Shown: positions 499 through 27,861 of the stretch, piece after piece
How the letters are laid out: the number at the start of each line of letters is the position of its first letter
Numbering within the stretch: position 1 is the stretch's first letter
Origin: Candidatus Margulisiibacteriota bacterium
Lineage (GTDB): Bacteria > Margulisbacteria > WOR-1 > O2-12-FULL-45-9
Length of the DNA: 44,844 nucleotides
Assembly: GCA_034723395.1 (NCBI GenBank)
Contig: JAYEOW010000016.1
Location: 1-44,844, forward strand
Direction of reading: 5' to 3'
Position numbers and translations under genes: made by a program
Notes under the pieces: generated by a model
Told to the model about the DNA's origin: nothing
Database searches by the model: none
Seen by the model: only the letters and a program-made list of their open reading frames with translations

Positions 499-1779
499 TT
501 ATGCCTCAATATCAATCTTTTTCAACAAAGCTTCCAAGCTCGGGATCATCGGGATCAAATACGGTTTAATGTTGCACATCGCCGGGTCGACCTTTACCTG
601 ATAACCGGTGATCATAAATTTTTGTTTTGCCAGTTTTTCCTGCAGGTCGCCAAACTCCTTGGCAATTAATCCCCGCCCCTCGTTGCCGTGATCTTTTTCA
701 GAAAAAACAAATATAACATAAACTTTACCATCTTTAACGATCATCGATACGACCATCTTCCCCATATTGGCGGTTTCCATAGACATGGTAACTTGAGTGT
801 TCCTTGGATCGACCACCGCATTTTTACCCTCCCCCTGCCGCTTGATCACGATCTCAAGATCTTTGGGAGGATCGGTCATTGCGTTTGGCACTTGATGGTA
901 CTGATAATTCACTTCAGACCTGCCCTTTTGCGAAAGGATTGACTGCGCCAAAAGATTCTGCAGAACACTTTCCATTTTCGATTGGAATTCGGTTAAAGCG
1001 GAAGATAGCACCTGTGCTTCCGCACTATTCGATGTTGGCGCCTTTTGCTGCAGCCCCTGCATCAACGCCTTTAATGCCCGGACATCGTTGATCAGGTTTT
1101 TCCCGATACCCGGTTTTCCAGAAAACTTCTGTGATAAACTTTGAAAATTTTCATCAAACTGGGAAAGGAGACCATTTAATTGGGAAATAAGGCTTGAGTC
1201 CAGCAATCCCTTCCCCATCCCCAAGGCCGACGTTAAGTTGCCAATCCCTTCCTGGATCGTCATCATCTGCGACGCCATCCCCGGGTTTTCCGAAAAATAT
1301 TGTCCCAGTACTTTTACCGCCTGCGGAGAATCAATCCCTTTCATAAGGAGCAAAACCGCCGCATCCTGCATCGCTTGTGATTTATTTGTGCCTTGTAACA
1401 TAGTCGATAGCTTTACAAAATTAGCACGGGAAAGCTCCAGGCCATTACGTAGCATTAATGAAGCTAATTTAGTATTAAAATCGCTCGGATTTATCTGGAG
1501 ATTGTTTAAAAGATGGGTTCGAATATCCTGGACAGTTAACGGTCGAGCCACTGATGGAGCAGGCTTAGCTGGAGCCGCGGGTGAAGTAGTTTGAGGAGCT
1601 TGGGTCGGAGCGACCTCAGTTGGTTTGGTTGGGGTTGTCGTTGGCTGAGAAGTGCGCACATTCCCAGTTGTCTGCGTTTGTTGTGGTTGATTTACTGGAG
1701 AACTTTGTGCTTTTCCAGTCGGCCAGATAATCGGCTTACCAGGATGGACTCCAGCGCCTTCTGCACCAAATTGAGCCAT
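499..1779 (-). CDS. FliK/SctP-like length-control (ruler) protein
   Basis: Long P/T/Q-rich N-terminus. C-terminal QVP...LEIVI...VTMSMETANMGKMVVSMIVKDGKVYVIF...L...L resembles the FliK C-terminal (T3S4) domain. Lies directly upstream of the FlhB-C gene, a common pairing. Confidence 0.7.
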   Translation of the reverse strand: MAQFGAEGAGVHPGKPIIWPTGKAQSSPVNQPQQTQTTGNVRTSQPTTTPTKPTEVAPTQAPQTTSPAAPAKPAPSVARPLTVQDIRTHLLNNLQINPSDFNTKLASLMLRNGLELSRANFVKLSTMLQGTNKSQAMQDAAVLLLMKGIDSPQAVKVLGQYFSENPGMASQMMTIQEGIGNLTSALGMGKGLLDSSLISQLNGLLSQFDENFQSLSQKFSGKPGIGKNLINDVRALKALMQGLQQKAPTSNSAEAQVLSSALTEFQSKMESVLQNLLAQSILSQKGRSEVNYQYHQVPNAMTDPPKDLEIVIKRQGEGKNAVVDPRNTQVTMSMETANMGKMVVSMIVKDGKVYVIFVFSEKDHGNEGRGLIAKEFGDLQEKLAKQKFMITGYQVKVDPAMCNIKPYLIPMIPSLEALLKKIDIEA

Positions 1780-8446: not shown

Positions 8447-8861
8447 CCTCACCCCTGCACCCCTCTCCATTCCCTCGACTTCGCTCGGGATGGAGAGGGG
8501 AATCAGTACCATAAATGAAAAGTAATCGCCAAATAATTTACGGCGCTAGATCCTCAAGAAAAGATTCAACGGAAGCAGAAGAATTACTTTGGCAGTCGAT
8601 TGATCGTTTTATTCTTGACTTTTATTGCCCCAGGAAAAAACTAGCTATAGAAATCGATGGAGGAATACACATTAATCGAAAAGAATATGATAGAATTAGA
8701 CAAGAAATTATCGAAAGTAAAGGAATCAAATTTCTAAGATTTAAAAACAAAGATATAATGAAAAAGATTGATTTCGTATTAAAAACAATTAAAAGAAAAT
8801 TAGTCCCCTCTCCACGAAGTGGAGAGGGGTGCCCCGAGCTTGTCGAGGGGCGGGGTGAGGA
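8447..8861. mobile_element. DUF559-carrying mini-element with palindromic inverted ends and 11-bp target-site duplication
   Basis: Starts CCTCACCCC and ends GGGGTGAGG(A). Each end has a CCCCTCTCCA..TGGAGAGGGG hairpin. Flanked by the direct repeat ATGTCTATAGC (8436-8446 and 8862-8872). Confidence 0.75.
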
Positions 8862-8871
8862 ATGTCTATAG
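8515..8871 (+). CDS. DUF559 (Vsr/PD-(D/E)XK-like) endonuclease-domain protein, apparently internally deleted
   Basis: T.AE..LW, FILDFYC..KKLAIEIDG..H, G.KFLRF.N present; the usual LR...G.KFRRQ segment is missing. Confidence 0.8.
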   Translation: MKSNRQIIYGARSSRKDSTEAEELLWQSIDRFILDFYCPRKKLAIEIDGGIHINRKEYDRIRQEIIESKGIKFLRFKNKDIMKKIDFVLKTIKRKLVPSPRSGEGCPELVEGRGEECL

Positions 8872-12348: not shown

Positions 12349-13950
12349 CTAACACGCTTCCTGGATCGAAATTGCAATTTCATGTCCAGGCGCTTCAAAT
12401 CCCGTTTCTTCGGCAAGGCGCTCAAGAATCTCATGCGCCATTTTTCTCTTATTGGTTAAATAAGCAATTTCTCCTCGAGCTTCAATAGCCGTTTGAATTA
12501 ATCTAAATTCATCTTCGGCTTCGCGGAACATCTTGGTATTCGCCTTATCACGAATCTGGTCTAATTCGGTCTGAGATAACTTAACTCCGAGCTTTTCAAG
12601 GTTCTTTAATACGGTCTTAAGCTTACGCTCGGTCATCTTCCAGGCTACCCCCGATAGTTTAGCATAGGTCGCCCGCTCTTCAAATGCTTCGTTCAACATT
12701 TCAAATAATTTCACTTTGGCAAGCGCTTTTCCTTCGGTCTCGATCTCATCAAAGTTCTTAACCCCTAACTTGATCAATCCGTTCTGCATTTTAACCATCT
12801 TGATCTGGGTGGTCAACACGGTCCGCATATCCCCATAAACCGCCCTGCGCAGGTATAGCGCGCGCAGCTTATCGGTCAAGATATCCCGCTCTTCGTCGTG
12901 TGTATATTGGTAACGGTGCCCTTCGCGCTGATCACTGTTATTCGCGCTGGCATTAGCATTGGGCGCGTCTTCGAAATCGATGATCGCGTTAAGCCCCAGG
13001 TCATCTTTCATCTTAGGGATCTTTTTGACAAAATCGCCCACGTCAAATCCCACCTTCGAGCCAAGCTTGATCAATTCGCTGATCTCTTTTTCGACCGCCT
13101 TGCCGTCTTTCCCCAAAGATTTCTTCACAACCTCTTTAGAGATAGCGTCATCCAGGAAATCGCGCATATCGCGGTGAGAATCTTCTTTTACCCTATCAAC
13201 CGCTCCCTGAAGGTGGCCGTCCATACCGCCAAAGTCATATCCTCCGAGGTTATCGTTCATAAACGCGTAGTCGATAAATCCGTTCAGCTCTTTCTTTGCC
13301 AGAATTCCGGCCAGTGATTTAGTCCCGCTGAGAAGATGGTTAATATAAGCTTGTTTGATCTGTTTTAAAACTTCGGACCGGACACTATTGGCTACGCTGG
13401 CCTTGGTACTCTGCAGATCTTTTAAGGATACTCCCCGGTCGTTAAGCAGCTCATTTTCAATTTGCTCCAGCTTCTTTTTGGTCTGCGCTCCGCCGTTAAC
13501 CAGCATTTGCGAATAGGCGCCGATATAATCTTTAACCGTGGTCGCTTTTTGCGGAAGGGCCTCATCCCCGTCCGCCATCTGCTGGCCGCCATTCCGCCCC
13601 TGCTTCTGGTTCTTGGCCGCTTTTAAGATCGGATTACTGATATCAACCATATCCTGAGCGGCATCCTCTTTACCGTAAAGCAGTTCATACTCATTTTTGA
13701 GATTATTGAGAAGCTTATTGGTCGGCATTTTTCCGGCAAGTTTAGCGGCAAGGCCAACGAGAATGCCGGTCCCTACTTTCCCCTTTTTCCCGTCCAAAGC
13801 CTTCTTAAGCGCGCTCTCTTCAACCTTGGTAGCATTATCGGTATTGGCCTGTCGCTCCATCTCAGAGCGGAGGACCTGACCCAGGTTCTCAACCGCTGAA
13901 AGGTTGGACATAACCGCTAAATTCTGTTGACTTAGTTGTTCAATACCCAT
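12349..13950 (-). CDS. Hypothetical alpha-helical protein (533 aa)
   Basis: Long ORF tightly packed in the operon; no recognised family motif. Confidence 0.85.
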   Translation of the reverse strand: MGIEQLSQQNLAVMSNLSAVENLGQVLRSEMERQANTDNATKVEESALKKALDGKKGKVGTGILVGLAAKLAGKMPTNKLLNNLKNEYELLYGKEDAAQDMVDISNPILKAAKNQKQGRNGGQQMADGDEALPQKATTVKDYIGAYSQMLVNGGAQTKKKLEQIENELLNDRGVSLKDLQSTKASVANSVRSEVLKQIKQAYINHLLSGTKSLAGILAKKELNGFIDYAFMNDNLGGYDFGGMDGHLQGAVDRVKEDSHRDMRDFLDDAISKEVVKKSLGKDGKAVEKEISELIKLGSKVGFDVGDFVKKIPKMKDDLGLNAIIDFEDAPNANASANNSDQREGHRYQYTHDEERDILTDKLRALYLRRAVYGDMRTVLTTQIKMVKMQNGLIKLGVKNFDEIETEGKALAKVKLFEMLNEAFEERATYAKLSGVAWKMTERKLKTVLKNLEKLGVKLSQTELDQIRDKANTKMFREAEDEFRLIQTAIEARGEIAYLTNKRKMAHEILERLAEETGFEAPGHEIAISIQEAC

Positions 13951-13951
13951 C

Positions 13952-14998
13952 TTAGTTAGCCCCCATCAGTTCTGGAGATATCTTTCTTACCTTAGCGTAA
14001 CAACTCTTTGCCTTCTCTTTTTCGCCCTTTAATTCATACGCTTTGCCTAAAAGGAAGTTCGGCATCGCCTTGTTCTGATAAATATTTTCTACTTTTCCGT
14101 CTAATTTCATATTCAATATTTCGGTTAAGATCTCGATCGAGGTATCGATTTTTCCCGCCACTAAATAAATACTGGCAAATACGTTGCGGGCCGGAATATT
14201 TTTTGGGTCCAATTTAATTACCGCTTCGGCAGCCTTGGCCGCTTCAGAAAGTTTTTTCATCCTTAACAATAGATCGGCTTTTTTCTCCAAAGCCTGGCGA
14301 ACGATCTCCTTATCAGTTGATAGTTCGTGCGTTTTTGTATAGTGGACCAACGCCGCTTCGTCTCTTTTTAGCTCATTTAAGTTATTAGCCAAAAGGAAAT
14401 GAAGATAAGGATCATTCGGGGTCTTTTCCAAAGCTTTTGAATAGTGCTCTACATACCATTTTCTCTTTTCGTCCATTTTAGATTCTTCCAGGTTCTTCCC
14501 CCAATGATAGATAGCAACCGGAATATCTTCACCGGTGATCGTCTTTCCGCTTCCATCAACCAACTGCTCGTTTATCGGGCGGATAAAGTGATAACCGAGC
14601 CCATTCTTGAATACTTTGGCCCGCTTATAACCGCTCTTATTTTCACAGGTTCCAACCTTAGACTCATACATCGTAAGGGCAAATGCATCATACTCATTTT
14701 TTTCGATCAGCCCTCTTAACTCTTTCAGATCTTCTTCGCGCATATATTCATCGGCATCGATCCAGAGGATCCAATCGCCGGTTGCCGCTTTGATCGATTC
14801 GTTTCGAGCAGCCGAGAAATCGTTTACCCAAGGAAAATAAAAAACCTTTGCCCCATATTTTTCGGCAACCTTGATCGTATCGTCATTTGAACCGGTATCG
14901 ACCAAAATAATTTCATCCGCATATTTACTCAAGCCGGGGAGAGTTTTCTCCAGCATCTTTTTTTCGTTCTTTACGATCATACAAGCCGAAAGTTTCAT
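13952..14998 (-). CDS. GT2 glycosyltransferase with C-terminal TPRs (GmaR/flagellin-glycosyltransferase-like architecture)
   Basis: LSACMIVKNE, DTGS.D.T, W.NDFSAARN, WILWIDADE, then TPR-like helices. Confidence 0.9.
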   Translation of the reverse strand: MKLSACMIVKNEKKMLEKTLPGLSKYADEIILVDTGSNDDTIKVAEKYGAKVFYFPWVNDFSAARNESIKAATGDWILWIDADEYMREEDLKELRGLIEKNEYDAFALTMYESKVGTCENKSGYKRAKVFKNGLGYHFIRPINEQLVDGSGKTITGEDIPVAIYHWGKNLEESKMDEKRKWYVEHYSKALEKTPNDPYLHFLLANNLNELKRDEAALVHYTKTHELSTDKEIVRQALEKKADLLLRMKKLSEAAKAAEAVIKLDPKNIPARNVFASIYLVAGKIDTSIEILTEILNMKLDGKVENIYQNKAMPNFLLGKAYELKGEKEKAKSCYAKVRKISPELMGAN

Positions 14999-15009
14999 TC
15001 CATTGCTCC

Positions 15010-15396
15010 TTAGGCTGCCGCCTGCACTCTGACCGGTTCTACTTTTTTGAGTGCTCGGCGAACCTTCTTCTGGTCGCCTAATTCTTTATCTAACAGCGCT
15101 TCTACCTTTGCTAAATGCTTATCGCGCAAACTTTCGGCCTTACGGATATAACCGTGTAATTTCTCAAGCTTGATCAACAGCTCTTTTTTGTTGGTGCCGG
15201 TCATACTCATCTCGTATTCTAAATTTGCCCGCTCCATATAGAACTCGGTTAAGATCGTGCGAACCGCATCGAGCCCCATCTCTTCCATGGCTAATGGAGT
15301 ATAACGGTCTCTTACCCCTAATCTCTCGGCCTGGATCAGGAGCTGGCTCTCCAGCTCGTTAATTAATTTGATCTGTTTATTCTTCTTCTTGCTCAT
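15010..15396 (-). CDS. Hypothetical helical protein (128 aa)
   Basis: Start placed at the ATGA overlap with the upstream stop (MSKKKNK), with a GAGGTG RBS. Confidence 0.75.
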   Translation of the reverse strand: MSKKKNKQIKLINELESQLLIQAERLGVRDRYTPLAMEEMGLDAVRTILTEFYMERANLEYEMSMTGTNKKELLIKLEKLHGYIRKAESLRDKHLAKVEALLDKELGDQKKVRRALKKVEPVRVQAAA

Positions 15397-15923
15397 CCCA
15401 GCACCTCTAACATGCTCCAATCGTAGTGCATCTGGGCAAGTGAACCCTGGTTTTGCGTAATTAAATCCTGCCTGACTTCTTCTCTTAAAGTCTGAACATC
15501 TTTGGGTGACATCCCGGCGCGCATCAAAACTGAGGCATTGATCGAAGCGGTAAACTCCGCTACTTTCGCTATTAACCGGTTGAAGTGAAAACTATTTCCA
15601 TATGATTTTTTAAATAGATCGACAAACCTTTTTTTTAATCTAGTGAGGTGCCGTCGTAAAGCGGGGGCCTGCTCGGGAGCTTTTATTGCGGTAGGCAGAA
15701 CGACTGAACTGACAACCGCGGTATCCGGCTGGGAAAGGCCAATATGCTTTTTCCCCTTATTATCATCTACCGCTGTTTCCCACTTTAAGCTGGTAGTTCT
15801 TTCCGGCTCCTTAGTAACTTTTACCGCTTCGCCATTCGCTTCAGGATTTTCCTGCCCTGGCTTTGGCAAAACCACTGCATATTGTTTATTTAAGCCGGCA
15901 CCGAGTGATAATTCTGCACTCAT
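15393..15923 (-). CDS. Hypothetical protein (176 aa)
   Basis: First gene after promoter 2, AGGAG RBS; disordered N-half, helical C-half. Confidence 0.8.
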   Translation of the reverse strand: MSAELSLGAGLNKQYAVVLPKPGQENPEANGEAVKVTKEPERTTSLKWETAVDDNKGKKHIGLSQPDTAVVSSVVLPTAIKAPEQAPALRRHLTRLKKRFVDLFKKSYGNSFHFNRLIAKVAEFTASINASVLMRAGMSPKDVQTLREEVRQDLITQNQGSLAQMHYDWSMLEVLG

Positions 15924-15947
15924 AAATACACTTCTCCTCTATAATAT

Positions 15948-15975
15948 ATATCGGGTTAAATAGGGGAAAACTTGC
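15948..15975 (-). promoter_or_regulatory. sigma28/FliA-like promoter 2
   Basis: GCAAGTTT-N12-CCCGATAT. Confidence 0.8.
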
Positions 15976-15983
15976 GCCAAAAC

Positions 15984-18083
15984 TTAGGATTTTTGCTTGT
16001 TTTTTTGGAGCCTTGCTTTGGTGTTCGAGGTGTGTTTTTTATACATGCGGGTGCGCATCTTTTGTAAAGCTCTCTGGAAGGCCTTTTTTTCATCAGATTT
16101 ACTCACATATCCTTGAGACGATTTTCCTCTCTGGGCCGCTTTTTTCTCCTCGGCTTTCCGCCTCTTTCTCGATTTTGCCGCCCGTTTCAGGGACTGTTTC
16201 TTCTCCCTGATCTCTTCTTGCTGCAGCTCTTCGATCTGATCAGCGTAATCGGTCTTATCTTGTTTATAACGAGAGCTAATAACCCGCTTAGCCGCACAGC
16301 GTTCCATAATCCTGACTATATCCATCTGCTCTCCCCACTTCAGGTACATCCCAACCGCATGGACCGCCCAGTTATTGGCGAATTCAGGTCCCTGGACAAT
16401 CGCGTTGTACGTTAATCCTTTAAATTGAGCGGTTGTATATTCAGGATGGTGCTCATCCCAGCCCGCGGCATTTTCGTTCATGCGCGAAAGGTGTCCGTAT
16501 AAAGAGTTGTGCAACCGGTCCAATTTATGGGTCCTCCGCCACACGTTCCCCTCTACCCCATTTTCAAGTCTTACATAATAATCTTTTGCCCATTTTCTAT
16601 CCCAACCATAGCTCTTGTACGAAGAGGTCGGCATTTTTACGGCAACAACCTTACTCCAGGAACCATAGCCATCACCGCTAGCCGGCATTGATCCAATGTA
16701 ATCCGACGTGGCAGAATCCAGGTTAACCCACTGCCACGAAGAAACCTCGTCTTGATAATTTTCCCAGATCGGCCTTCCATTTTCTACTTCAGTTGCCCCA
16801 AACCAATCATTAATTAAGGAATTAACCGCGTTATATTCGTCGCTACCTGAGTTATATTGGTCCCGATATGCATAAAGCATATTGGCCTCACTGTTGCTAT
16901 CTCCATTAAAATCTTTCCGGCCAAACCACTTCGATTGTTTCCAGAATATATCGCGGTCCATGTTTGATAATTCATGCCCATTGTTATAGCCCTTTTCATA
17001 AAAGGTGGTCACCCTGTTTTGAAAAGAGTGCTGCATATAGATAAACAACGGGAACATCGAAAGCGCATGATGGTTCATGTAAGGGTTATGCGAAAAGATA
17101 AAGTCATCAACGGAGTCGATCATCGCCTGGTCGTTTCGCGTATTCTCTACCGGTCCTAACATCGCCGACATCGCATACCAGGCACGTTCACGTGATTCGT
17201 ACATAGCAGCGGTGTATAACGCCGCTTCAGATGCGGTTAAATTATTATAAGATCCATCCAGCGCGATCTGATAATAACTCTTCCCGGCAAGATGGACATT
17301 GTTGTCCAGTAAGTTCTTTACATCAATCCACTCCTTTTTAATTGCTTTCAAAAAATCTTTCACAAAATATGCCTGGTCCGCGTCCTGCAATGCGGATTGG
17401 TTATCTTTTGAATGGTCGTTTTTCAGCATGATATGGTTCCACTCACCGGCGCTCATAACCATATTCACATTCCTAAAACGCCCCCCCATCCCGCTTCCCG
17501 CAAAACAACCGTTCGGATCCCCCGAACCGAAATTACCAAAAACTGGTGTGCGGTGGTGCTGGCCGGAGATCCAGTTGGTACGCCACTCGGTATAGCCGTC
17601 TTCACGTCCATTATCCTCTTCCCAGATAATCGTATCAGCATTGGTAATGCGGCCATCTCCGTTACGATCGGATAAAGCGGTCCGGGTAACAACGCCGTTG
17701 CCATCCTGTTCTTCTCCATAACCCCAAAGATCAATATCAGCCGCGTCAAAGTTGCCGTCCCCGTTCTTATCGGTCAATTCGTATTCATTAAAAGCATCCC
17801 ACCACTCCTGAGTAACCCAGGTCTTATCGTTGTCGGGGCCATGCTCAAAATAGACTGCTCCCTCGTCCCCCTCCTCCGCATTCATCTTGCCTGCATATGC
17901 CAGCTGCTCAAATTCGGGAAGGAACTTCATCATTTCCAAACCGAAGTTCCCGAGTTTGAGCAGGTCCTTATTCCCGGTAATAAAGTTGAGGAGATCGGGC
18001 CCCTGGGGAACAATACCTTTGCGGGGTTTACGACTTTTTAACAGGGTCAGGTTCGTAATGTGGGCATATTTGTTGTAAAACAT
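15984..18083 (-). CDS. Hypothetical protein with EF-hand/dockerin-like Ca-binding loops and basic coiled-coil C-terminus (699 aa)
   Basis: DKNGDGNFDAADI, DRNGDGRITNADT, DFNGDSN; W/Y/D/N-rich core; K/R-rich tail. Confidence 0.8.
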   Translation of the reverse strand: MFYNKYAHITNLTLLKSRKPRKGIVPQGPDLLNFITGNKDLLKLGNFGLEMMKFLPEFEQLAYAGKMNAEEGDEGAVYFEHGPDNDKTWVTQEWWDAFNEYELTDKNGDGNFDAADIDLWGYGEEQDGNGVVTRTALSDRNGDGRITNADTIIWEEDNGREDGYTEWRTNWISGQHHRTPVFGNFGSGDPNGCFAGSGMGGRFRNVNMVMSAGEWNHIMLKNDHSKDNQSALQDADQAYFVKDFLKAIKKEWIDVKNLLDNNVHLAGKSYYQIALDGSYNNLTASEAALYTAAMYESRERAWYAMSAMLGPVENTRNDQAMIDSVDDFIFSHNPYMNHHALSMFPLFIYMQHSFQNRVTTFYEKGYNNGHELSNMDRDIFWKQSKWFGRKDFNGDSNSEANMLYAYRDQYNSGSDEYNAVNSLINDWFGATEVENGRPIWENYQDEVSSWQWVNLDSATSDYIGSMPASGDGYGSWSKVVAVKMPTSSYKSYGWDRKWAKDYYVRLENGVEGNVWRRTHKLDRLHNSLYGHLSRMNENAAGWDEHHPEYTTAQFKGLTYNAIVQGPEFANNWAVHAVGMYLKWGEQMDIVRIMERCAAKRVISSRYKQDKTDYADQIEELQQEEIREKKQSLKRAAKSRKRRKAEEKKAAQRGKSSQGYVSKSDEKKAFQRALQKMRTRMYKKHTSNTKARLQKNKQKS

Positions 18084-18097
18084 AACTTAGTTATTGA

Positions 18098-18424
18098 TTA
18101 CGAAAACATGTTGTTTACTTGTCTCTGCAGGGTCATATCATGTTTTAACGCGTCTAAAAGGTTGTTAAAGATCAACCCCTGCTCTTCCTGCCACATCGTC
18201 ATCGCGGTATTCGCGGCAATCCCGTTCTTCTGGTCAGCCGTAAAATGGTACTGGCCAAAATTGAGGTCGGACTCTTCATTAACCAGGTCTTTCATCAAAT
18301 TAGTTAACTCACCTCTAAATCCCCTATAGAAATCGGCGACCTTATCACGGGTAACGGTCGAATTGATCTGATACCCGTCAACCTGAAGGGCGCTTAACGC
18401 TCCGGAATAAACATCTCCAATCAT
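18098..18424 (-). CDS. 108-aa helical protein, putative needle/inner-rod-like subunit
   Basis: AGGAGG RBS; C-terminus FNNLLDALKHDMTLQRQVNNMFS; aligns ungapped with its neighbour. The CDS is solid, the function is inferred. Confidence 0.55.
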   Translation of the reverse strand: MIGDVYSGALSALQVDGYQINSTVTRDKVADFYRGFRGELTNLMKDLVNEESDLNFGQYHFTADQKNGIAANTAMTMWQEEQGLIFNNLLDALKHDMTLQRQVNNMFS

Positions 18425-18457
18425 AATAATTTCCTCCTAATTAATTTTTTAACCTTG

Positions 18458-18513
18458 TTTAAGGGACCGCTGGTCCCCTAAATAAGGCAGGCCCCGGTCT
18501 CCCGGGGCCTTCC
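18458..18513 (-). other. Two tandem GC-rich RNA hairpins without a U-tract
   Basis: Minus strand AGGAAGGCCCCGG..CCGGGGCCTGCCT, then TTTAGGGGACC-AGC-GGTCCCTTAAA. Confidence 0.75.
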
Positions 18514-18518
18514 TATGG

Positions 18519-18845
18519 TTACATATTGAACTTGTTCATCGCGGTCTTAACCAGTTTGATCTGGTTTGTACCGATTCCTGATATGTTAGATACAGCAGTT
18601 TGAATCGCATCCTTAGCAAATTCTAAGAGCGCGACACCGCCAGTTCCTTGCAGTGAAGCTTCTTTTCCGCCCCACTGAATTGATCCTGCTTCGTGAGTTT
18701 CTGGGTCTCCATCCATAACTACGTCTGCAACTGCATCGTTGTCAGACACTTCATTAGCCGCAGTGATAACCTTATCTAAAAGATCCTGGTTACGCGCGTC
18801 CTGAAGGTTTAATGCGTCAACAACACTTCCTTGAAAATGGTCCAT
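18519..18845 (-). CDS. 108-aa helical protein, putative major needle/filament subunit
   Basis: Own sigma28-like promoter, AGGGGGTG RBS, downstream hairpins; C-terminus ALLEFAKDAIQTAVSNISGIGTNQIKLVKTAMNKFNM. The CDS is solid, the function is inferred. Confidence 0.55.
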   Translation of the reverse strand: MDHFQGSVVDALNLQDARNQDLLDKVITAANEVSDNDAVADVVMDGDPETHEAGSIQWGGKEASLQGTGGVALLEFAKDAIQTAVSNISGIGTNQIKLVKTAMNKFNM

Positions 18846-18887
18846 ATTTTTTCACCCCCTTTTTTCTTTGTTTCCCATCCACTTATA

Positions 18888-18915
18888 TTATCGGGTCGAG
18901 CGGGCAAAAACTTGC
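18888..18915 (-). promoter_or_regulatory. sigma28/FliA-like promoter 3
   Basis: GCAAGTTT-N12-CCCGATAA. Confidence 0.8.
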
Positions 18916-18916
18916 A

Positions 18917-19150
18917 TCAGACAACCATGTTTTGCTGCATCCCCGGGATGTTGCCGGTCGAGATCTGGGCGATCATGTTTTTAACGTCCTGAGGATCGAT
19001 CTTTAATTCGGGGCTCCCGCCAAGGTTCTTCGCGTCGAGCGCGCTTTTAACCCTGTCTCCCAGCTGGCCAAGTAAATTATTCCCTATCCCTTCCCGGGAT
19101 TCTTTTACCTGGCTGGTCAATTGTGAATTTATGTTAAGTCCTGTTTTCAT
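18917..19150 (-). CDS. Small hypothetical protein (77 aa)
   Basis: ATGA overlap with the upstream gene; fills the gap to promoter 3 exactly. Confidence 0.7.
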   Translation of the reverse strand: MKTGLNINSQLTSQVKESREGIGNNLLGQLGDRVKSALDAKNLGGSPELKIDPQDVKNMIAQISTGNIPGMQQNMVV

Positions 19151-19440
19151 TTGTTTAGATTATCGAACAACTGTTTGATCTTGCCGATCGATTCTTCGAT
19201 AATTTCTTCTTCGGCTTCGAGGAAGCTAAAAGGATCGCTGTGCAGCTCTTCTTTATTGCGGGTAAAGGCCAATGACGCGGCATTGCTCTCTTTTGCGATC
19301 TGCATTTTGGCCGCTTTTGCCACGCCGGCGATACTCTCGGCAAAGTTAGCCCCGTTTGTATTCTGGACGCTATTTACCGACTTTGCGGTCGATTTAACAT
19401 TTATTTCGTTATTATACGGTAATATACTTCCGATATTCAT
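19147..19440 (-). CDS. Small hypothetical protein (97 aa)
   Basis: Starts 1 nt after the giant gene's stop; MNIGSI N/S-rich start, NFAESI, acidic C-terminal helix. Confidence 0.75.
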   Translation of the reverse strand: MNIGSILPYNNEINVKSTAKSVNSVQNTNGANFAESIAGVAKAAKMQIAKESNAASLAFTRNKEELHSDPFSFLEAEEEIIEESIGKIKQLFDNLNK

Positions 19441-19441
19441 T

Positions 19442-22400
19442 TTAGGCTACCCCCGCTCCGCTCGTTTTAATACTGTTCTCTTCGCGAAGCGCATCTTCAT
19501 ATTGCTGCCGATAACTCTTCTTTACCTGGCTGCGGGCAATACCAGCCAATACACTAGGCGCGCGGTCTACCAATCCCGGCTTAGGCTGCTCTACTTCCCT
19601 TACGACATTCTCCATATCTTTTTGAACACGCTCTCTTCCCGCCCTAACAAACTTCTGAATAAAGGCAAGGATACTTGAACCAGGAGCTTCCTGGGACGCC
19701 TGAGCCCCCGCTTTTCTGGACGCCTCTCTAACCTCCGCTTTCTTAATATCTCTTTCTAATGATGTAATATCTTTCTGTAATCCCTGCAAATTAGCTCTTA
19801 AACCCTTAACCTCAGTTTCTACCCCTTTAATCTTTTGTTCAGCCAGTTTAATTCGATCGGTTATTTTCTGCTTAGCATGGATTAATAGTTTCTCTTGAGA
19901 TTCCACTGATTTTAACTGCACTTTTAACTTAGCAAGTAATACTTTATCCTGGGCAGTTAGTTTCTTCTTGGTTTGCAGAGCAAATATTTTCTTGCCGATT
20001 TCTGTCCTTTCACGCCGGAGCTGGCCGATCTGGACATCAGCCTGTTTCTGCCATGCCGCAACCTCAGCTCTGATCTTTGGCAGCTGAGTTTTTAAAGCGT
20101 TGAGCTCTTTTATTTTAACCGATAATTGTTTCTGGACCGCATCCCTCTTTTGTTTAAGCTGCACTAACTGCGCCTTAAGCTGCAGTGAGCTGGCCTTTGG
20201 AGCCGCCAGCCTTCTTTGCGGAACATATTTTTTAACTGCCACTGTCTTAACTTTTGAGCTTGAAATATGATTTGCAATCTGGTTTGCCTGCTTAAGCAGC
20301 GCCTGGGTCCTGGTATGAGTAGTTGTCCGGCTGCTCTGGTTTACCCGGTTCACATTAGTTGGAGTAGAAACCTTATTCGCCGCCGGGGCATTTAGGGCCG
20401 CGGCAGCCTGGGCGACCATCGGCGCTAATTTGGGGTCAAGCATCTCAACCTGTTTTAATATTTTAAGCGCGCGTTCTTTGGCAACCTTGCCTCCTCCCAA
20501 CTGATCTATTCCAGATTTGATCAAGGCTTTATTCGGCTGTTTAACTATGTACCAAGCAACATCACGGGCAGAATTTTTCGGATTATTTGCCATTGATTGG
20601 ACTTTTCTATTAAACGCGCTGATGTTGGTCTTCTCCGGAGTCTTTCTCAACCTTAAATAAGTGTCCGCGGAATTTTTCGCTTCGGACATAATGAAATTTG
20701 AGGTCTTTTCGCTCCGGGCAGCCACGTAACTAGCCTTCATATTCTCCTGGTCGATAAATGAGAGCGCTACTTGTGCTGCCTCGATATCAGCATCCATATT
20801 GTCCATTGAATTAAAATAATCCGAAGATTTCTGGGCAGACCGCTCTTTAGGGGCATCTGCTTTTTTAGCATTCTTGTTGTGTACCCCATCATAGGTAAGG
20901 TCAACCGTAATATCGATTAACCGGCTGGCTAGATTTAAGGCCGCGATAACCCGATTGAACTTACCAATATCCTTGCCAATCGTGGTCATATTCTTACCTT
21001 TAAAAAACGATCTTTTATCTTTTACCCAGAAGCTTTTCCCCTTGGTCAATATCTTGTGCTCCGCCTTCATCCGGGCATTATAGGCGCTTAATCCAATCGT
21101 AGCTAAGCTTACTGCCGTCCTAATAGATGATAAAATAACGCCGCTGATTGCCCCTTTGATCTGATTACGCCGTTCAATTATACTGTCTAGCGCGCCCTTT
21201 AACGAATCGAGCATCGAAAGGGCGACCGATTTATGGTCGTTAAGCGAATCTTTACCAAAGTCTTTGCGCGGCATGCTCTTACCCGAAAAGCGCGCTTTTG
21301 CCTGCGACTTGGCATCGGTAAGGATACTGCGGGCAACGGCAATCGCTTCTCTAACATTATATAAAGCCTTCATCCGGCCCGAGAGTTTCGAAGCTTCCGG
21401 GCTAACCATCATAAAGGTGCTGTCGATGCTCGTCATCAGCGAAGAGTTCATCTCCAGCATGATCTCGTATTCCATCTTATCCATCCTGGAATCAATACCT
21501 GCTTCGTTATTAACTCTGCGCCCGGTTTTATCTACGGTAGTTTTTGCTTCATACCCTTTTAAACTACCGTAATCATTTTTACCTAAGGTAATCGACGCGG
21601 TAATCAACGATGCTAATGAGTTGGTCAGTGACATTAATCCGCTGGTTAGTCCCATACATGCCTTATGAAATGTGATTAAACCTGAAGTTGTAGAATTAAG
21701 CGTGGCTGCTCCGCCAACCCCACCAACTATAGCAAACACCGCGTTAACCCCAAACGTAGCCGCGGCCATTTTCATCGCTTTTTCCTTGTCGCGGGCGCGG
21801 TTCATAACCTTTACTTTTTCCTGCAATGCCCTGACGATATTGCTGACCACCTTCATCGCGGTGCTGAAAGAGGCCTGGTTAGTAGATTTTGAAAGTTCGC
21901 CTTGAGTGCTTAAAGTCTGGCCGGTAAACTCCTGTTTTACGATCATCCGGAGCTCAGAAGATAGCGCTCTCGCCTTAGCCAGCGCCTCTTTTGCGGCATA
22001 GATCCTGCCGATCCGCGAATAGACGCTAGTTACCAGAGAGAAATTGACTCCGTAGTAACCGTCGCCGCTCGAAACGATCCCATGCTCCATTAACTCCTGG
22101 TAAGCTTTAAGTTCTATCGCGTCTAACTTTGCTTCGACCGATTTTGCCCCGCGAGAGCGGAGAATATTATCCAGATCTTCGCTTACAACATTAAATGCCC
22201 CTTTGATCTTGTTGTGGTCCCTGACCGCAGTGTACAATTGAAATGCAGCAGAAGATAATGCAGAAACAATCCCCATATACACTCCCCATAAAGCGGGACT
22301 GATTATATATCCAAGAACGGCGCCCAAAGCAGCGCCGGCAACCGAAATTGCCGCCCCTCTCATCGCATCTTTTGCCCCGATGTCGGCTTGCAGCTTCATA

Positions 22401-24958
22401 TTTTTAGCGATCACTACTTCCTGATGATGGAACTTGATCGCGGAGAGGAGCGTCTGCCGCTGCATCATAATATTTTCAACCGCGTTCTGCAGGAGCGCCT
22501 CCCCGGAATTAGCAGAAGAACTTCCGGTAAATTCAGAATCGGCGACCCTTCTAAGGTCTCGGCTGTTCTTGATCAGTGAGAAGATCGACCGGACCGCGTT
22601 ATCCATCATCTTCAGCTTCATCTCATAGGCGGCAAACTGCTTTGTATTTAAGAAATAGAAATCATCACCGGTCTGGCCAAGCATCCCGTTATTGTAGGCG
22701 GCCGCTCTTACCGTTGCCTTCTGCTCCATCTCGATCTCATCAAGCACATCTAAAATAGCATCCCCATGGCCTTTCTTCTCAGTGATCGGTTCGTTGTAAT
22801 GCGCTTCGATCGGATTATATTCCTTAATCCTCGAAGCTTCATAAGTCCCGATCGCGTTCATCAATCCGCCGGCAAGACCGCAAACCGCGGCAACCAGCAT
22901 TGCCATTGCCGGAGCTGTCGCACCGAGCGAGTAGATCGAAACTGCTACAGCGGCGATCGTTAAGACAACCGCGGCCAAGCGGAAAGGGCGCGCCCTTAAA
23001 AGCTGCTGGTAGTTCTTTAGTAATTGAACATTGGTATTATGGAGCTTGCTCTTTAACATCAGCTGAGAAGCGGTAGCGTCAAATACCTGGGTAGCGTGGC
23101 CAAGCGCGGATTCGGCGGACTGCATCAGCATTTCGGCGTCATTCTTGATCCCCGAAAGGCCGGTAAATTTCTCCCGGGCAATATTCCTCATATCCCTGCC
23201 GAGCATTTTGATCGACAGGTAAGAACGAATGCCATTTTGTGAAGCAACCAATCCACCGCGGTAATCCGCGAGCATCCCCTCAATATCAAGGGTCATATAT
23301 TCCGCACCTTCAGCAAAGTCGTACTCACTGCTATCCGCCCATTTCACAAAACCATATGCCATCCCGACGACCGGAATAAAAGATAAGACCGGCCCAAGAA
23401 CATATTGCCACTTGCCCGTCTTCTCAAGGAGTTCATTTAACTTATTGACACCCTTCTCAGTGCCTTTCGAAAGTTCTTCCAGGCCACGGCCAGCCCAGTA
23501 TCCGATGCTGTACTTACGGCCGGTTTTCGCGTACCATTCTCTCGAATCATTGTTCCACTGGCAAATCCACCAGACAACCACATCACCGACCTCCTGCATA
23601 AGCCGCCCGATCTTTTTCATCAAATCCAGCGCGATGCGCGGCAAGGCAGCCATGAAATCAGCCGCCACACTGCCAATTTTGAATATTTGCGCTAATCCCC
23701 ATAATACCCCGGTCTTCTCCATCGCCTTACAAACCGCGTTATTCATGCCGCTTATGGATGACCAGATCCCTTTCCAATCAAACTTTCCCAGGGATTTCCA
23801 GAACTTCTTGAAATTCTTCCGGAAGCCCTTTGGATTGTCCTTCTCGATCTTATCTAGATTCTTCTGGACCTCAGCCAGCCCCTTATCGACTTCCGCATTC
23901 ATCTCATCGATCTTAGCGCTGAATGCCTTTAAGCTCTTGACCATTCCCAGAGCCATCATGTTCATATCGCCGCTGGCAAAACACTGGGTGATCAGGGCAA
24001 TTACCGAGTTAATTACCCCCTGCATTGCAGCTAGGGTTTTCTGGGTCGTTTTATAATATTTCTCCGACTCCTTAAGCGCCATCCTGGTCTTCTTCATGTC
24101 GTTTTTGCCGCCGGTAAAGAAGTTCCCAACCTTATCGTACCACTTGTTGTACTTATTCTTGATCTTCGCCATTTTATCGTTGTATATCTTTAAATTATCG
24201 GTATTTATCTTCTCGAACAGCTTAGCGACCGCTACTTGAGACATCTTTTGAAGGATCCTGATCTTGCGGGCGAAGGTCTCTTTGTAGGAGTATTTATCAT
24301 CCTGGATCGGCTCGCCGGTAAACGCCTCTTCAACCAGCTTCTTGGTCTCGAACTGATTTCCAATCGCAATTAAAAGTGCGGCTAATATATTAGCGCGGGT
24401 TATGATATATTTTGTCCATTCTTCCAGCTTCTCAGGATCCGGCTCCCAGTAACCATCTTCATTCTGGACCATATAATCTTCTTCGGTAAATTCGAGCACT
24501 TTGTCAGTGAGGTCGCCGTCCAGGTTATCCGCGGTATCGATCGCCCCGCCCATTCCACTGGTTTCGTCACCGCTATCTGCCGGTGAGGTTCCATTGGTAC
24601 CGTTAGTTCCGCTGGCGCCATCGGCAGGATCGCTCGGGCTTGGATTTGGCGGTGGCGGAGGCGGAGGAGCCTCTTTGGTCTTTCCTCCGTTAACTAAATC
24701 ATGGTATTCGGAAGAGTTTTCGATATATTGTTCTTCAACCGCTTCCTGAACAGTTTTGGACTGCAAAGCCGCATTGGCCTGGGTGGAATTAAGAGGGGGT
24801 CCCGAGATCTGTGCTTTATCAGTTGCTTCCGCAATCGCTACTTCGAGGGTATCCGAAACAAGAAAATTAGGCTGCGCTCCGGCGCCCGCAAGCCGTTCCT
24901 CGGCTTCAAGCATAGCTCTTTGCAGCTCTATTACATTATTTACGTTTGGAGGATTCAT
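19442..24958 (-). CDS. 1838-aa helical repeat protein with multiple hydrophobic hairpins (translocator-like) and C-terminal coiled coil
   Basis: F(T/S)G-anchored repeats at aa 213, 598, 810, 1011 and 1224; G/A-rich hydrophobic pairs; poly-Pro N-region; no signal peptide seen. Confidence 0.8.
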   Translation of the reverse strand: MNPPNVNNVIELQRAMLEAEERLAGAGAQPNFLVSDTLEVAIAEATDKAQISGPPLNSTQANAALQSKTVQEAVEEQYIENSSEYHDLVNGGKTKEAPPPPPPPNPSPSDPADGASGTNGTNGTSPADSGDETSGMGGAIDTADNLDGDLTDKVLEFTEEDYMVQNEDGYWEPDPEKLEEWTKYIITRANILAALLIAIGNQFETKKLVEEAFTGEPIQDDKYSYKETFARKIRILQKMSQVAVAKLFEKINTDNLKIYNDKMAKIKNKYNKWYDKVGNFFTGGKNDMKKTRMALKESEKYYKTTQKTLAAMQGVINSVIALITQCFASGDMNMMALGMVKSLKAFSAKIDEMNAEVDKGLAEVQKNLDKIEKDNPKGFRKNFKKFWKSLGKFDWKGIWSSISGMNNAVCKAMEKTGVLWGLAQIFKIGSVAADFMAALPRIALDLMKKIGRLMQEVGDVVVWWICQWNNDSREWYAKTGRKYSIGYWAGRGLEELSKGTEKGVNKLNELLEKTGKWQYVLGPVLSFIPVVGMAYGFVKWADSSEYDFAEGAEYMTLDIEGMLADYRGGLVASQNGIRSYLSIKMLGRDMRNIAREKFTGLSGIKNDAEMLMQSAESALGHATQVFDATASQLMLKSKLHNTNVQLLKNYQQLLRARPFRLAAVVLTIAAVAVSIYSLGATAPAMAMLVAAVCGLAGGLMNAIGTYEASRIKEYNPIEAHYNEPITEKKGHGDAILDVLDEIEMEQKATVRAAAYNNGMLGQTGDDFYFLNTKQFAAYEMKLKMMDNAVRSIFSLIKNSRDLRRVADSEFTGSSSANSGEALLQNAVENIMMQRQTLLSAIKFHHQEVVIAKNMKLQADIGAKDAMRGAAISVAGAALGAVLGYIISPALWGVYMGIVSALSSAAFQLYTAVRDHNKIKGAFNVVSEDLDNILRSRGAKSVEAKLDAIELKAYQELMEHGIVSSGDGYYGVNFSLVTSVYSRIGRIYAAKEALAKARALSSELRMIVKQEFTGQTLSTQGELSKSTNQASFSTAMKVVSNIVRALQEKVKVMNRARDKEKAMKMAAATFGVNAVFAIVGGVGGAATLNSTTSGLITFHKACMGLTSGLMSLTNSLASLITASITLGKNDYGSLKGYEAKTTVDKTGRRVNNEAGIDSRMDKMEYEIMLEMNSSLMTSIDSTFMMVSPEASKLSGRMKALYNVREAIAVARSILTDAKSQAKARFSGKSMPRKDFGKDSLNDHKSVALSMLDSLKGALDSIIERRNQIKGAISGVILSSIRTAVSLATIGLSAYNARMKAEHKILTKGKSFWVKDKRSFFKGKNMTTIGKDIGKFNRVIAALNLASRLIDITVDLTYDGVHNKNAKKADAPKERSAQKSSDYFNSMDNMDADIEAAQVALSFIDQENMKASYVAARSEKTSNFIMSEAKNSADTYLRLRKTPEKTNISAFNRKVQSMANNPKNSARDVAWYIVKQPNKALIKSGIDQLGGGKVAKERALKILKQVEMLDPKLAPMVAQAAAALNAPAANKVSTPTNVNRVNQSSRTTTHTRTQALLKQANQIANHISSSKVKTVAVKKYVPQRRLAAPKASSLQLKAQLVQLKQKRDAVQKQLSVKIKELNALKTQLPKIRAEVAAWQKQADVQIGQLRRERTEIGKKIFALQTKKKLTAQDKVLLAKLKVQLKSVESQEKLLIHAKQKITDRIKLAEQKIKGVETEVKGLRANLQGLQKDITSLERDIKKAEVREASRKAGAQASQEAPGSSILAFIQKFVRAGRERVQKDMENVVREVEQPKPGLVDRAPSVLAGIARSQVKKSYRQQYEDALREENSIKTSGAGVA

Positions 24959-24967
24959 CTATAATAT

Positions 24968-24995
24968 ATATCGTGGTTTGAAGGGTAAAACTTGC
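24968..24995 (-). promoter_or_regulatory. sigma28/FliA-like promoter 4
   Basis: GCAAGTTT-N12-CACGATAT, 9 nt before the ATG at 24958. Confidence 0.8.
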
Positions 24996-26783: not shown

Positions 26784-26811
26784 CTATCGTAACAACTTGC
26801 AAAAAACTTGC
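26784..26811 (-). promoter_or_regulatory. sigma28/FliA-like promoter 5
   Basis: GCAAGTTT-N12-TACGATAG, with a second GCAAGTT inside the spacer. Confidence 0.75.
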
Positions 26812-26916: not shown

Positions 26917-27801
26917 TTATATTTTATTTATTTCTGCGACTCTACGATCGGGTTGTTTGTCGAACGCGAGAGAGATAGATATATAGTGTATCGGGCTTTC
27001 GGAACCGCGGTAAGCATAATTTACTCCTACTCCATTGCGGCTTACGCCTACTCCAGCTGTATTGTATACTCCATCTTTACCGGCCCGAAGGGCGACCAGC
27101 GAGATCGGCTTCCATTCGCAGCCTACCCTCCCATCACTATCCGCGCTTACTATAATAGATTCGAGAAGTTTAGCTGAAGCGCCAAGAGAGATGCTATATT
27201 CGTCTTCACTGGCACTGTCCATAGCGCTAAAAAAGTTCTTAATATTAATACCCAGAGAGATATCCTCTCCCGGCTTTAACATTGCCGCCAGATCGGCATT
27301 GATAATAGAACCATTATTATCAGATAGCCCTTTTGCTCTGGTAATCAGATAATTTGATACTTTTAAACTTCCGCCCAGGGATAATTTACCCATAAACTTT
27401 GGAACTACCGAAAAGCGGTTGAATTCGCGGGCATATGAGAGGATTAACGCCTGGTTTTGGGCTGCAACCGGGGCCTCGCCTTGGTCGTTGATCGCGGCCG
27501 CGGAGAGGCCGTCAATTGGATAAGCAGAGCTGATATAGCCGATCCCAAAGTTACCAACCGGGGTCTCTTCGACCCCGCCTATAATAGTATAGCTCCTATC
27601 AGAAATTTTGTTTGAAACGACTGCGTGTTCACCGTGGAGATAGCCGATCCCGGCGGGGTTCTCAAAAATAGCATTGGCATCGTCAGCGATAGCCACAAAA
27701 GCTCCCCCCATCCCCATCGGCCTCGCCCCCATATTATCCGAAGCAAAAGAGACGGATGCAACTAGTAAGACTGCAGACAGCAAGAGAATGTACTTCTTCA
27801 T
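26917..27801 (-). CDS. PorV/PorQ (UPF0164, FadL-like) outer-membrane beta-barrel
   Basis: Signal peptide, GARPMGMGGAFVAIADDANAIFENPAG signature, alternating beta-strands. Confidence 0.8.
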   Translation of the reverse strand: MKKYILLLSAVLLVASVSFASDNMGARPMGMGGAFVAIADDANAIFENPAGIGYLHGEHAVVSNKISDRSYTIIGGVEETPVGNFGIGYISSAYPIDGLSAAAINDQGEAPVAAQNQALILSYAREFNRFSVVPKFMGKLSLGGSLKVSNYLITRAKGLSDNNGSIINADLAAMLKPGEDISLGINIKNFFSAMDSASEDEYSISLGASAKLLESIIVSADSDGRVGCEWKPISLVALRAGKDGVYNTAGVGVSRNGVGVNYAYRGSESPIHYISISLAFDKQPDRRVAEINKI

Positions 27802-27833: not shown

Positions 27834-27861
27834 TTATCGTAGCTTGGGGGATAAAACTTGC
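27834..27861 (-). promoter_or_regulatory. sigma28/FliA-like promoter 6
   Basis: GCAAGTTT-N12-TACGATAA. Confidence 0.78.

Follow-up and report, generated by a model that had tools for sequence, protein, structure and literature searches.

Flagellar export and basal-body genes that are kept without a working flagellin are known from the basal bodies of Buchnera aphidicola and from Lysobacter enzymogenes OH11, for which the portions of the two reports drawn upon here describe the export of non-flagellar proteins (PMC7688988, PMC8109811). In Listeria, flagellin is modified by GmaR, a protein in which, according to the part of the source used here, an N-terminal glycosyltransferase domain that puts N-acetylglucosamine (GlcNAc) on flagellin is followed by tetratricopeptide repeats (TPRs) (PMC9638930). 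Here, we compare with these systems a locus of a Candidatus Margulisiibacteriota bacterium (assembly GCA_034723395.1), located on the contig JAYEOW010000016.1 (contig C16 in our numbering; its 44,844 nucleotides (nt) are called the window below). The locus comprises two open reading frames (ORFs), ORF-A (18519..18845, minus strand) and ORF-B (18098..18424, minus strand), which lie head to tail; sister genomes and loci are designated by G and L numbers. A preliminary description of this DNA took the two genes for paralogs with C-termini like those of SctF and SctI, the needle and inner-rod proteins of type III secretion systems. Their adjacency and their length of exactly 108 amino acids (aa) each, as given there, were confirmed.

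The reading that we favour, albeit tentatively, is that ORF-A encodes the main late export substrate in the position of flagellin, and that ORF-B encodes a conserved partner of the 699-aa protein whose gene follows it. Both genes would belong to a conserved cluster under control of the sigma-28 (FliA) type, serving a type III export apparatus of flagellar descent, from which flagellin, stator, and the torque domain of FliG appear to have been lost. ORF-A would be a monocistronic late gene in this "flagellin slot", strongly expressed as judged from its predicted signals, and its product, which has no Sec signal, would most likely pass through the flagellar-type gate and end up outside the cytoplasm. 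Its place there may be that of the main distal subunit, in a thin non-rotating filament or a polymer resembling a needle, or that of a surface protein secreted in abundance, and the GmaR-like glycosyltransferase of the cluster probably O-glycosylates it. ORF-B, a predicted hairpin unrelated to ORF-A and more widely conserved, is translated just ahead of the 699-aa protein and most likely acts together with it, be it as a chaperone for its export or as a minor subunit that is distal or associated with a cap. What the data show are the ORFs, the protein families, the promoter motif with its enrichment, the synteny, and the gene content of the genomes; FliA dependence, export, glycosylation, and polymerisation are what we infer. 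The genomic context favours a link of ORF-A and ORF-B to type III export, and namely to that of the flagellar kind.

Flagellar genes and the sigma-28-like motif

The genome, a 1.68-Mb assembly of 55 contigs that is 97% complete, has metagenome-assembled genomes (MAGs) of Candidatus Saganbacteria and Margulisiibacteriota as its closest named records. Its contig C55 encodes FlgF, FlgG, FlgA, FlgH, FlgI, a sigma factor, FlgB, FlgC, FliE, FliF, FliG, FliH, FliI, and FliJ, of which FliG, with its 154 aa, comprises the N and M domains only. Contig C46 encodes a FliK-like protein of 243 aa (L034 1730-2461), a 271-aa protein of the FlgE/F/G family, which is the third of that family in the genome (TIGR03506, 120.8 bits at a cut-off of 70.25), FliM, FliN, FliO/P/Q/R, FlhB, and FlhA. 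Export gate, rod, L and P rings, and C-ring are all represented. The second of the two FliK-like ruler proteins of this genome (426 aa) is encoded in the window (499-1779, minus strand) together with a stand-alone FlhB C-terminal domain of 112 aa (154-492, minus strand), extra to the full-length FlhB, and both these genes stand behind one promoter motif at 1866-1892.

Profiles of Flagellin_N, Flagellin_C, and FliG_C had no match anywhere in the genome, and the only MotA_ExbB match is a frame of 153 aa, which we take to be the size of ExbB/TolQ rather than that of MotA. Since neither a MotA-sized stator nor a FliG torque domain was found, no rotation is expected. The same pattern extends over the order: of its 31 genomes, 30 have FHIPEP (FlhA) and a single one has Flagellin_N. 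Judging by gene content, this lineage keeps the flagellar export gate together with rod, rings, rulers, and a sigma factor resembling FliA, and lacks recognisable rotating and filament parts. The only Flagellin_N match of the order, a 251-aa protein of G126 (L029 1408-2163), has a signal-peptide-like hydrophobic start, which is odd for a flagellin.

The expression signals of ORF-A and ORF-B agree with the preliminary description in that both genes have strong ribosome-binding sites (GGGGGTGA at 18852..18859, minus strand, for ORF-A, and AGGAGG at 18433-18438, minus strand, for ORF-B) and the first gene has a promoter-like element of its own, although this element is sigma-28-like rather than sigma-70-like. 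The sigma-28 consensus is TAAAGTTT-N11-GCCGATAA, and the putative element of ORF-A, GCAAGTTT-N14-CGATA, occupies positions 18889..18915 (minus strand), with 43 nt between its end and the ATG codon. Directly 3' of the ORF-A stop codon lies a hairpin resembling an intrinsic terminator (18489..18510, minus strand), with a stem of 9 bp, of which 8 are G-C pairs, and a T-rich tail. A sigma-28-type motif, an own terminator, and a strong translation signal make up the anatomy of late-class flagellin genes, and ORF-A, as far as its predicted signals go, has all three.

This anatomy belongs to the position rather than to one protein. In 7 of 7 loci, the gene in the position of ORF-A (the slot-A gene) has the motif, a ribosome site of the AGGAGGTGAAA type, and a hairpin terminator, whatever type of protein it encodes, the hairpins equivalent to that of ORF-A being found after the slot-A genes of 6 other loci. 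Slot A is occupied by a type of protein of 91-98 aa in G108 and G129-G132 (alignment A4), and by proteins of 117 aa in G122, 72 aa in G125, and 113 aa in G116. As relatives of ORF-A, the A4 type and the slot-A protein of G129 were rejected, with hhalign probabilities of 0.1% and 0.2%, respectively, against the ORF-A family alignment (A1, see below). The A4 type was also rejected as a flagellin (hhalign probability of 0.1% against the one flagellin of the order), and one slot-A protein of a sister lineage has a sub-threshold match to Flagellin_C (E 0.045, 14.5 bits at a cut-off of 23).

The promoter motif recurs in the genome in a way that points to a regulon. The form AAGTTT-N11-13-CCGATA was found 7 times, and at 6 of these sites an ORF in the matching orientation starts 6 to 43 nt further on. 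The form GCAAGTTT (with at most one mismatch)-N13-15-CGATA was found 38 times, whereas 20 block shuffles gave 3.5 on average and never more than 8. Of 22 exact GCAAGTTT-N14-CGATA sites, 16 are on other contigs and 6 are in the window, all of them on the minus strand and before genes (1866-1892, 15949-15975, 18889-18915, 24969-24995, 26785-26811, and 27835-27861); the genes behind them are, respectively, the FliK-like gene, an operon that starts with the gene of a 176-aa protein and includes a glycosyltransferase gene, ORF-A, and the genes of an 1838-aa, a 123-aa, and a PorV-like protein. Relatives have further sites before genes of 77-aa, 97-aa, 176-aa, and giant proteins. The regulon of this genome further includes three giant proteins encoded on contigs C3 and C22 (1152, 3665, and 1911 aa) and four small ones, and no Pfam family was found for these seven. 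The motif is tied to flagellar genes, and we infer that the cluster depends on FliA. At several sites only 6-12 nt separate the motif from the start codon, a spacing that suggests transcripts without a leader or start codons further downstream. A 3D (peptidoglycan-hydrolase) domain guessed for a 125-aa regulon protein on contig C6 was rejected, as Pfam gave none at E <= 0.01.

Relationship and predicted structure of ORF-A and ORF-B

The search for relatives of ORF-A yielded 57 matches at E <= 0.001 among 60 candidates, and 25 of these matches form the alignment A1. Conservation in A1 is moderate along the N-terminal helix and nearly complete in a C-terminal stretch, the middle between them varying greatly in length; in the C-terminal stretch, T68, G70, V71, A72, L74, A77, D79, I81, Q82, T83, A84, N87, and G92 are identical in 25 of 25 rows. 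The tryptophan of the W58-G59-G60 turn is kept in 19 of the 25 rows, and the variable middle of several relatives contains loops of the DxNxDGxI (calcium-binding) type. With its conserved N- and C-terminal helices around a middle of variable length, the predicted layout of the A family resembles that of axial proteins.

The C-terminal module of the A family, of about 40 residues, has no annotation, and its identity between phyla is 65-77%. Proteins of about 224 aa that combine it with a coiled coil and a Sec signal peptide are found in records labelled as Ignavibacteriota, Bacteroidota, and Aminicenantes; elsewhere it is fused behind hydrophobic regions or set between other domains (P0077, P0081, P0101, and P0102), also inside larger secreted proteins. 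No Pfam domain was found in the proteins of other architectures that bear it. Its presence behind Sec signal peptides suggests that the module works outside the cytoplasm and is not tied to a single export route. It is worth a structure regardless of whether our reading of ORF-A is correct. An export machine without filament parts, together with a small protein that is encoded in the position of flagellin, has no Sec signal, and ends with a presumably extracytoplasmic module, is what leads us to read ORF-A as a late substrate.

A word search with ORF-B found ORF-B itself only, while a full HMMER pass gave 18 proteins at E <= 0.001. The alignment A3 (16 rows) consists of 13 of these, ORF-B included, and of positional orthologs taken from two loci, one ortholog coinciding with a match; the repeat proteins P0064, P0072, and P0073 and the 2574-aa protein P0075 were left out. 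The B family is present in 11 of 31 genomes of the order, and the protein in the B slot of G129 (101 aa) is remotely B-like (hhalign probability of 43% against A3). The gene of the 699-aa protein (15984..18083, minus strand) starts 14 nt past the end of ORF-B, and in 6 other genomes in which both genes were located it is also directly downstream of the B-type gene. The 699-aa protein, found in 17 of 31 genomes of the order, has repeats of the DxDxDG (calcium-binding) type and a very basic C-terminal tail, and is without a signal peptide.

The proposed paralogy of ORF-A and ORF-B was based on a gapless alignment of their last 41 residues. BLASTP of one protein against the other gave no local alignment at E <= 100, and hhalign of A1 (25 rows) against A3 (16 rows) gave a probability of 0.3% over 13 columns; therefore, the 41-residue alignment lacks statistical support in these two comparisons. 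What the two proteins have in common is size and predicted topology only, and they are not demonstrable paralogs at the level of sequence. Neither did the comparison of their C-termini with those of needle and inner-rod proteins gain support. With hmmscan against all Pfam-A and NCBIfam models, no family was found for ORF-A or ORF-B at E <= 1, a limit to be read with the fact that HMMER filters drop most matches above about E 0.1. Membership in SctF or SctI has against it this lack of profile matches, the lack of detectable homology between the two proteins, and the fact that no injectisome-specific gene was seen in the genome, apart from two secretin matches that were not examined and are not near the cluster. 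The single FHIPEP gene and the single YscJ/FliF gene each belong to an operon of the flagellar type, among FlgH/FlgI, FliE, and FlgB/C. Among sequences of solved structures, none matched the A1 or A3 family profiles below E 0.06, and the hits obtained were discarded: armadillo-repeat noise for A1 (E >= 1.3), one bromodomain for A3 (E 0.066), and, in the case of A4, coiled-coil noise (E >= 0.1).

The structures predicted for both proteins have a common layout of an N-terminal helix, a short beta-hairpin at a Gly-rich turn, and a C-terminal helix of about 40 residues. In the ORF-B model (pLDDT 79, pTM 0.62), residues 1-21 are disordered and are followed by a helix (22-48), two strands (54-56 and 59-61), and the second helix (69-107), with F-G, and not W-x-G, at the turn. 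In the ORF-A model, a helix (3-35) is followed by a disordered region (36-54, pLDDT <50), two strands (55-58 and 61-64), and the second helix (68-107). The best match of the ORF-A model in VIA-align had a Z of 5.0, and all matches were single helices covering only the C-terminal helix; the look-up of ORF-A in ESM Atlas gave no match of at least 0.9, and no structural row was above TM 0.45. Foldseek of the ORF-B model against the Protein Data Bank (PDB) gave nothing at E <= 0.001, with prefoldin beta at the top (E 2.0, TM 0.54) and a needle chain at rank 46 (E 7.1). In VIA-align against 48,161 chains, the ORF-B model matched HP0062 first (Z 8.1, rmsd 2.9, 81 aligned residues) and then CFP-10/ESAT-6 (Z 7.8), and WXG100-like proteins, gp41, designed hairpins, CdsO, YscO, and FliJ were tied within 1 Z unit. 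A Z of 7-8 is a level that the tool itself describes as common for helical hairpins. Given these tied generic matches and the lack of a profile match, ORF-B is best described as a predicted helical hairpin of no assignable family, and a hairpin of ORF-A is not established. As to the compact two-helix hairpin of about 70-90 aa that characterises SctF, the ORF-B model is a hairpin with generic matches (Z 7-8), and in the ORF-A model the helices are not packed.

Neighbouring genes and alternative explanations

In the order of transcription, the cluster encodes proteins of 123, 75, 380, 1838, 97, and 77 aa, ORF-A, ORF-B, and proteins of 699, 176, and 136 aa, a GT2-TPR protein (348 aa), and proteins of 533 and 129 aa. 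The same gene order was found in Saganbacteria CG08 (L012), L011, and L033, and a diverged form of it in G122 and G129. Upstream of ORF-A are the genes of the 77-aa protein (18917..19150, minus strand), the homologs of which have the sigma-28-like motif at related loci, of the 97-aa protein (19147..19440, minus strand), conserved across the order with 38-43% identity, and of the 1838-aa protein (19442..24958, minus strand), which contains long coiled coils and about 5 hydrophobic segments; the sigma-28-like element of the last (24969-24995, minus strand) is 10 nt before the ATG codon. Further upstream, the motif precedes the gene of a PorV/PorQ-family-like outer-membrane protein with a signal peptide (26917..27801), whose NCBIfam match (E 4e-12) is below the cut-off. 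The second sigma-28-like element next to our genes (15949..15975, minus strand) is 25 nt before the gene of the 176-aa protein (15393-15923, minus strand) and heads the tightly packed genes of the 176-aa protein, the 136-aa protein (15010-15420, minus strand), which with 56-65% identity is better conserved than any other protein of the cluster, the glycosyltransferase with GT2 and TPR parts (13952..14998, minus strand), the 533-aa protein (12349..13950, minus strand), and the 129-aa protein. The 533-aa protein, which has no family match, was detected in 28 of the order's 31 genomes, including all 16 of high quality.

Among the cluster proteins encoded between 11932 and 26763, hydrophobic segments of 19 residues were found, at the threshold used, in the 75-aa and 1838-aa proteins only, and thus neither in ORF-A and ORF-B nor in the 699-, 533-, 176-, and 136-aa proteins. 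The best relative of the glycosyltransferase among solved structures is GmaR (22ao_A; E 4.5e-29, residues 3-183), and the next ones are SunS-type peptide S-glycosyltransferases (E 8e-19 to 8e-16). The likeness to GmaR and the motif at 15949-15975 therefore indicate a protein-glycosylating enzyme under the same promoter motif as ORF-A. Together with the flagellar apparatus that lacks a recognisable flagellin, FliG C-domain, and MotA-sized stator, and with the flagellin-like anatomy of slot-A genes in 7 of 7 loci, this enzyme lends indirect support to the functional part of the preliminary description, in which a small helical subunit would be made in abundance from a promoter of its own and exported by a type III machine. 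Genes of the DUF559 (endonuclease-like) type are present in the window (8515-8871) and beside flhA on contig C46 (L010 11929-12306).

Several results weigh against our reading of the two genes. The element before ORF-A, GCAAGTTT-N14-CGATA(A), has a spacer one base longer than the sigma-28 consensus, and the sigma factor encoded on contig C55, whose best family is FliA/WhiG, scores 135.6 bits at an NCBIfam cut-off of 189.6. The flagellar operons are on other contigs than the cluster, and no promoter was found for ORF-B, which the terminator separates from ORF-A. For positions 15300-19500, three DNA runs from one study were listed, and no RNA run. Of the 146 genomes of the phylum, only 7, which come from a single family, were found to have a member of the A family, and slot A holds at least four mutually unalignable types of protein, which would be unusual for a structural subunit that has to dock on a conserved rod or hook. 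Neither sequence nor profile similarity links ORF-A or ORF-B to SctF, SctI, WXG100, flagellin, FlgM, other axial proteins, or chaperone families. The ORF-A model is poor (pLDDT 63, pTM 0.27), with its two helices not packed together and no packed hairpin. Finally, the presence of the C-terminal module of the A family in proteins of other phyla that are predicted to be exported by Sec shows that this module is not specific to type III export.

Among the explanations that compete with ours, a doubtful one, which nevertheless deserves serious attention, makes ORF-A a late substrate that does not polymerise, such as a FlgM-like anti-sigma-28 factor expelled when the apparatus is complete, and ORF-B a cytoplasmic export chaperone of ORF-A or of the 699-aa protein, analogous to FliS, FliT, or FlgN. 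The genome has a FliA-like sigma factor and, with the FlgM profile, no match genome-wide at E <= 1, so the role of anti-sigma factor is unfilled. The genes of flgM stand behind sigma-28 promoters, and ORF-A is small, partly disordered in the model (36-54), and preceded by a sigma-28-like promoter element. However, the protein of slot A varies among genomes in which the sigma factor region and the cluster are conserved, while an anti-sigma factor should co-vary slowly; by conservation, the order-wide 97-aa protein is the better candidate for FlgM, and the C-terminal module that ORF-A has in common with Sec-exported proteins of other phyla also argues against such a role. The chaperone part agrees with the small size and predicted hairpin of ORF-B, with the place of its gene directly before that of a large putative substrate, and with the presence of FliJ, YscO, and CdsO (Z 7.2-7.4) among its structural neighbours. 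Against it are the 21 disordered residues at the N-terminus of ORF-B and the fact that its fold matches are generic for hairpins.

It is unlikely, in our opinion, that the products of the regulon have nothing to do with type III export and form another surface or cytoplasmic structure (for adhesion, in the envelope, or as a coiled-coil scaffold) that has only the transcription factor in common with the flagellar genes. The motif before the gene of the PorV-like outer-membrane protein with its signal peptide and before those of giant proteins of no family, the physical distance between the cluster and the flagellar operons, and the hydrophobic segments of the 1838-aa neighbour, which suggest membrane insertion rather than export, are consistent with this explanation. 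Yet the 75-aa and 1838-aa proteins are the only scanned proteins of the cluster with 19-residue hydrophobic segments, the module of ORF-A and the DxDxDG repeats of the 699-aa protein point to the outside of the cell, the gene of a FliK-like ruler has the same motif, and the flagellar gate is the only dedicated signal-independent exporter identified, in an analysis in which type I and other routes were not searched. An ESAT-6/CFP-10-type heterodimer of ORF-A and ORF-B leaving the cell by a type VII-like route is very improbable. The central W58-G59-G60 of ORF-A, with W in 19 of 25 aligned relatives, the size of about 100 aa of both proteins, the adjacency of their genes, and the structural matches of ORF-B to HP0062, CFP-10/ESAT-6, EsxEF, and EsxGH recall such pairs, but no WXG100 profile (PF06013 or TIGR03930) matched ORF-A or ORF-B, PF06013 had 0 matches genome-wide at E <= 1, the turn of ORF-B is F-G, and its Z values are tied with those of unrelated hairpins. 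Moreover, FtsK/SpoIIIE is represented by one full match (a 766-aa frame) and one sub-threshold match, so no multi-domain ATPase of the EssC/EccC type is present. We give just as little credence to the possibility that the two proteins are true but very divergent homologs of SctF and SctI. Their size, the helix-turn-helix layout of ORF-B, the polar amphipathic C-terminal helix, and the needle chain among the Foldseek hits would fit it, while the lack of a profile match, the unrelatedness of ORF-A and ORF-B to each other, and the flagellar type, with L and P rings, of the only type III apparatus found speak against it.

The reading of ORF-A as the main late substrate and of ORF-B as the partner of the 699-aa protein can be extended to a whole organelle, a step that is speculative and, in our view, rather improbable. 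The lineage would then represent a second, independent conversion of a flagellum into a non-rotating organelle of secretion or attachment, namely, a basal body that keeps rod, L and P rings, and a ruler of the FliK type. At its tip, the slot-A proteins, as fast-evolving and glycosylated hairpin subunits of about 100 aa, would form a thin polymer; ORF-B and the 699-aa protein would be distal partners, and the giant regulon proteins (1152 to 3665 aa) would be delivered through the organelle or alongside it. Such a conversion, if it took place, would parallel the origin of the injectisome needle.

Comparison with known systems

If the proposed functions of ORF-A and ORF-B are correct, an uncultured lineage next to Cyanobacteria keeps a flagellar export machine for a use other than swimming, with the gene in the position of flagellin as the source of its main product. 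It would provide a natural, independent example of the change of a flagellum into a device for secretion or attachment, a step from which the injectisome is believed to have arisen. Names would also be given to the families A and B and to a sigma-28-type regulon, the tested members of which have no Pfam match except for the glycosyltransferase, the FliK-like, the FlhB-domain, and the PorV-like proteins.

One close resemblance of ORF-A is to flagellin genes such as fliC, hag, and, together with GmaR, flaA of Listeria. ORF-A, like these, appears to be monocistronic, with a sigma-28-type motif, a strong ribosome site, and a terminator, and the A family has conserved terminal helices around a variable middle. 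A parallel to the Listeria pair is the presence of a GmaR-related GT2 and TPR enzyme in the same putative regulon and of a flagellar export gate in the genome. Unlike flagellins, which have roughly 250-600 aa, ORF-A has 108 aa and no match to Flagellin_N or Flagellin_C, its slot holds unrelated small proteins in sister lineages, and the genome, unlike those of flagellin systems, has neither a stator-sized MotA nor a FliG torque domain among the matches found.

The likeness to SctF (PrgI/MxiH/YscF) and SctI concerns ORF-B, whose model is a hairpin of a size similar to that of these small helical proteins, which leave through a type III gate and form polymers distally. A sequence or profile relation was not detected, and the apparatus differs in being flagellar, with FlgH/FlgI rings and a FliK-like ruler. 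The turn of needle proteins contains Pro, while that predicted for ORF-A and ORF-B is a Gly-rich beta-hairpin. In the case of WXG100 proteins (ESAT-6/CFP-10, HP0062), the likeness includes the length of about 100 aa, the hairpin of the ORF-B model, a central W-x-G in ORF-A, adjacent genes, and the best Z for ORF-B, and the differences are the lack of a profile match, of an EssC/EccC-type ATPase, and of Trp at the turn of ORF-B.

Flagellar export without flagellin is already known elsewhere, and homology to needle proteins is unsupported here. We found no report of such a flagellin-less export system in Margulisbacteria or Saganbacteria in the literature searched, which comprised sources other than subscription journals. 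With Buchnera and Lysobacter OH11, the present lineage has in common that the export machine is kept without a recognisable flagellin. The dedicated regulon and the small-protein slot are not mentioned for these two bacteria in the portions of the reports drawn upon (PMC7688988, PMC8109811). In contrast to these two, the condition described here is lineage-wide, with FlhA in 30 and flagellin in 1 of the 31 genomes, and appears to be associated with a dedicated sigma-28-type regulon of mostly uncharacterised proteins and with a conserved "flagellin slot" that is occupied by genes of small proteins.

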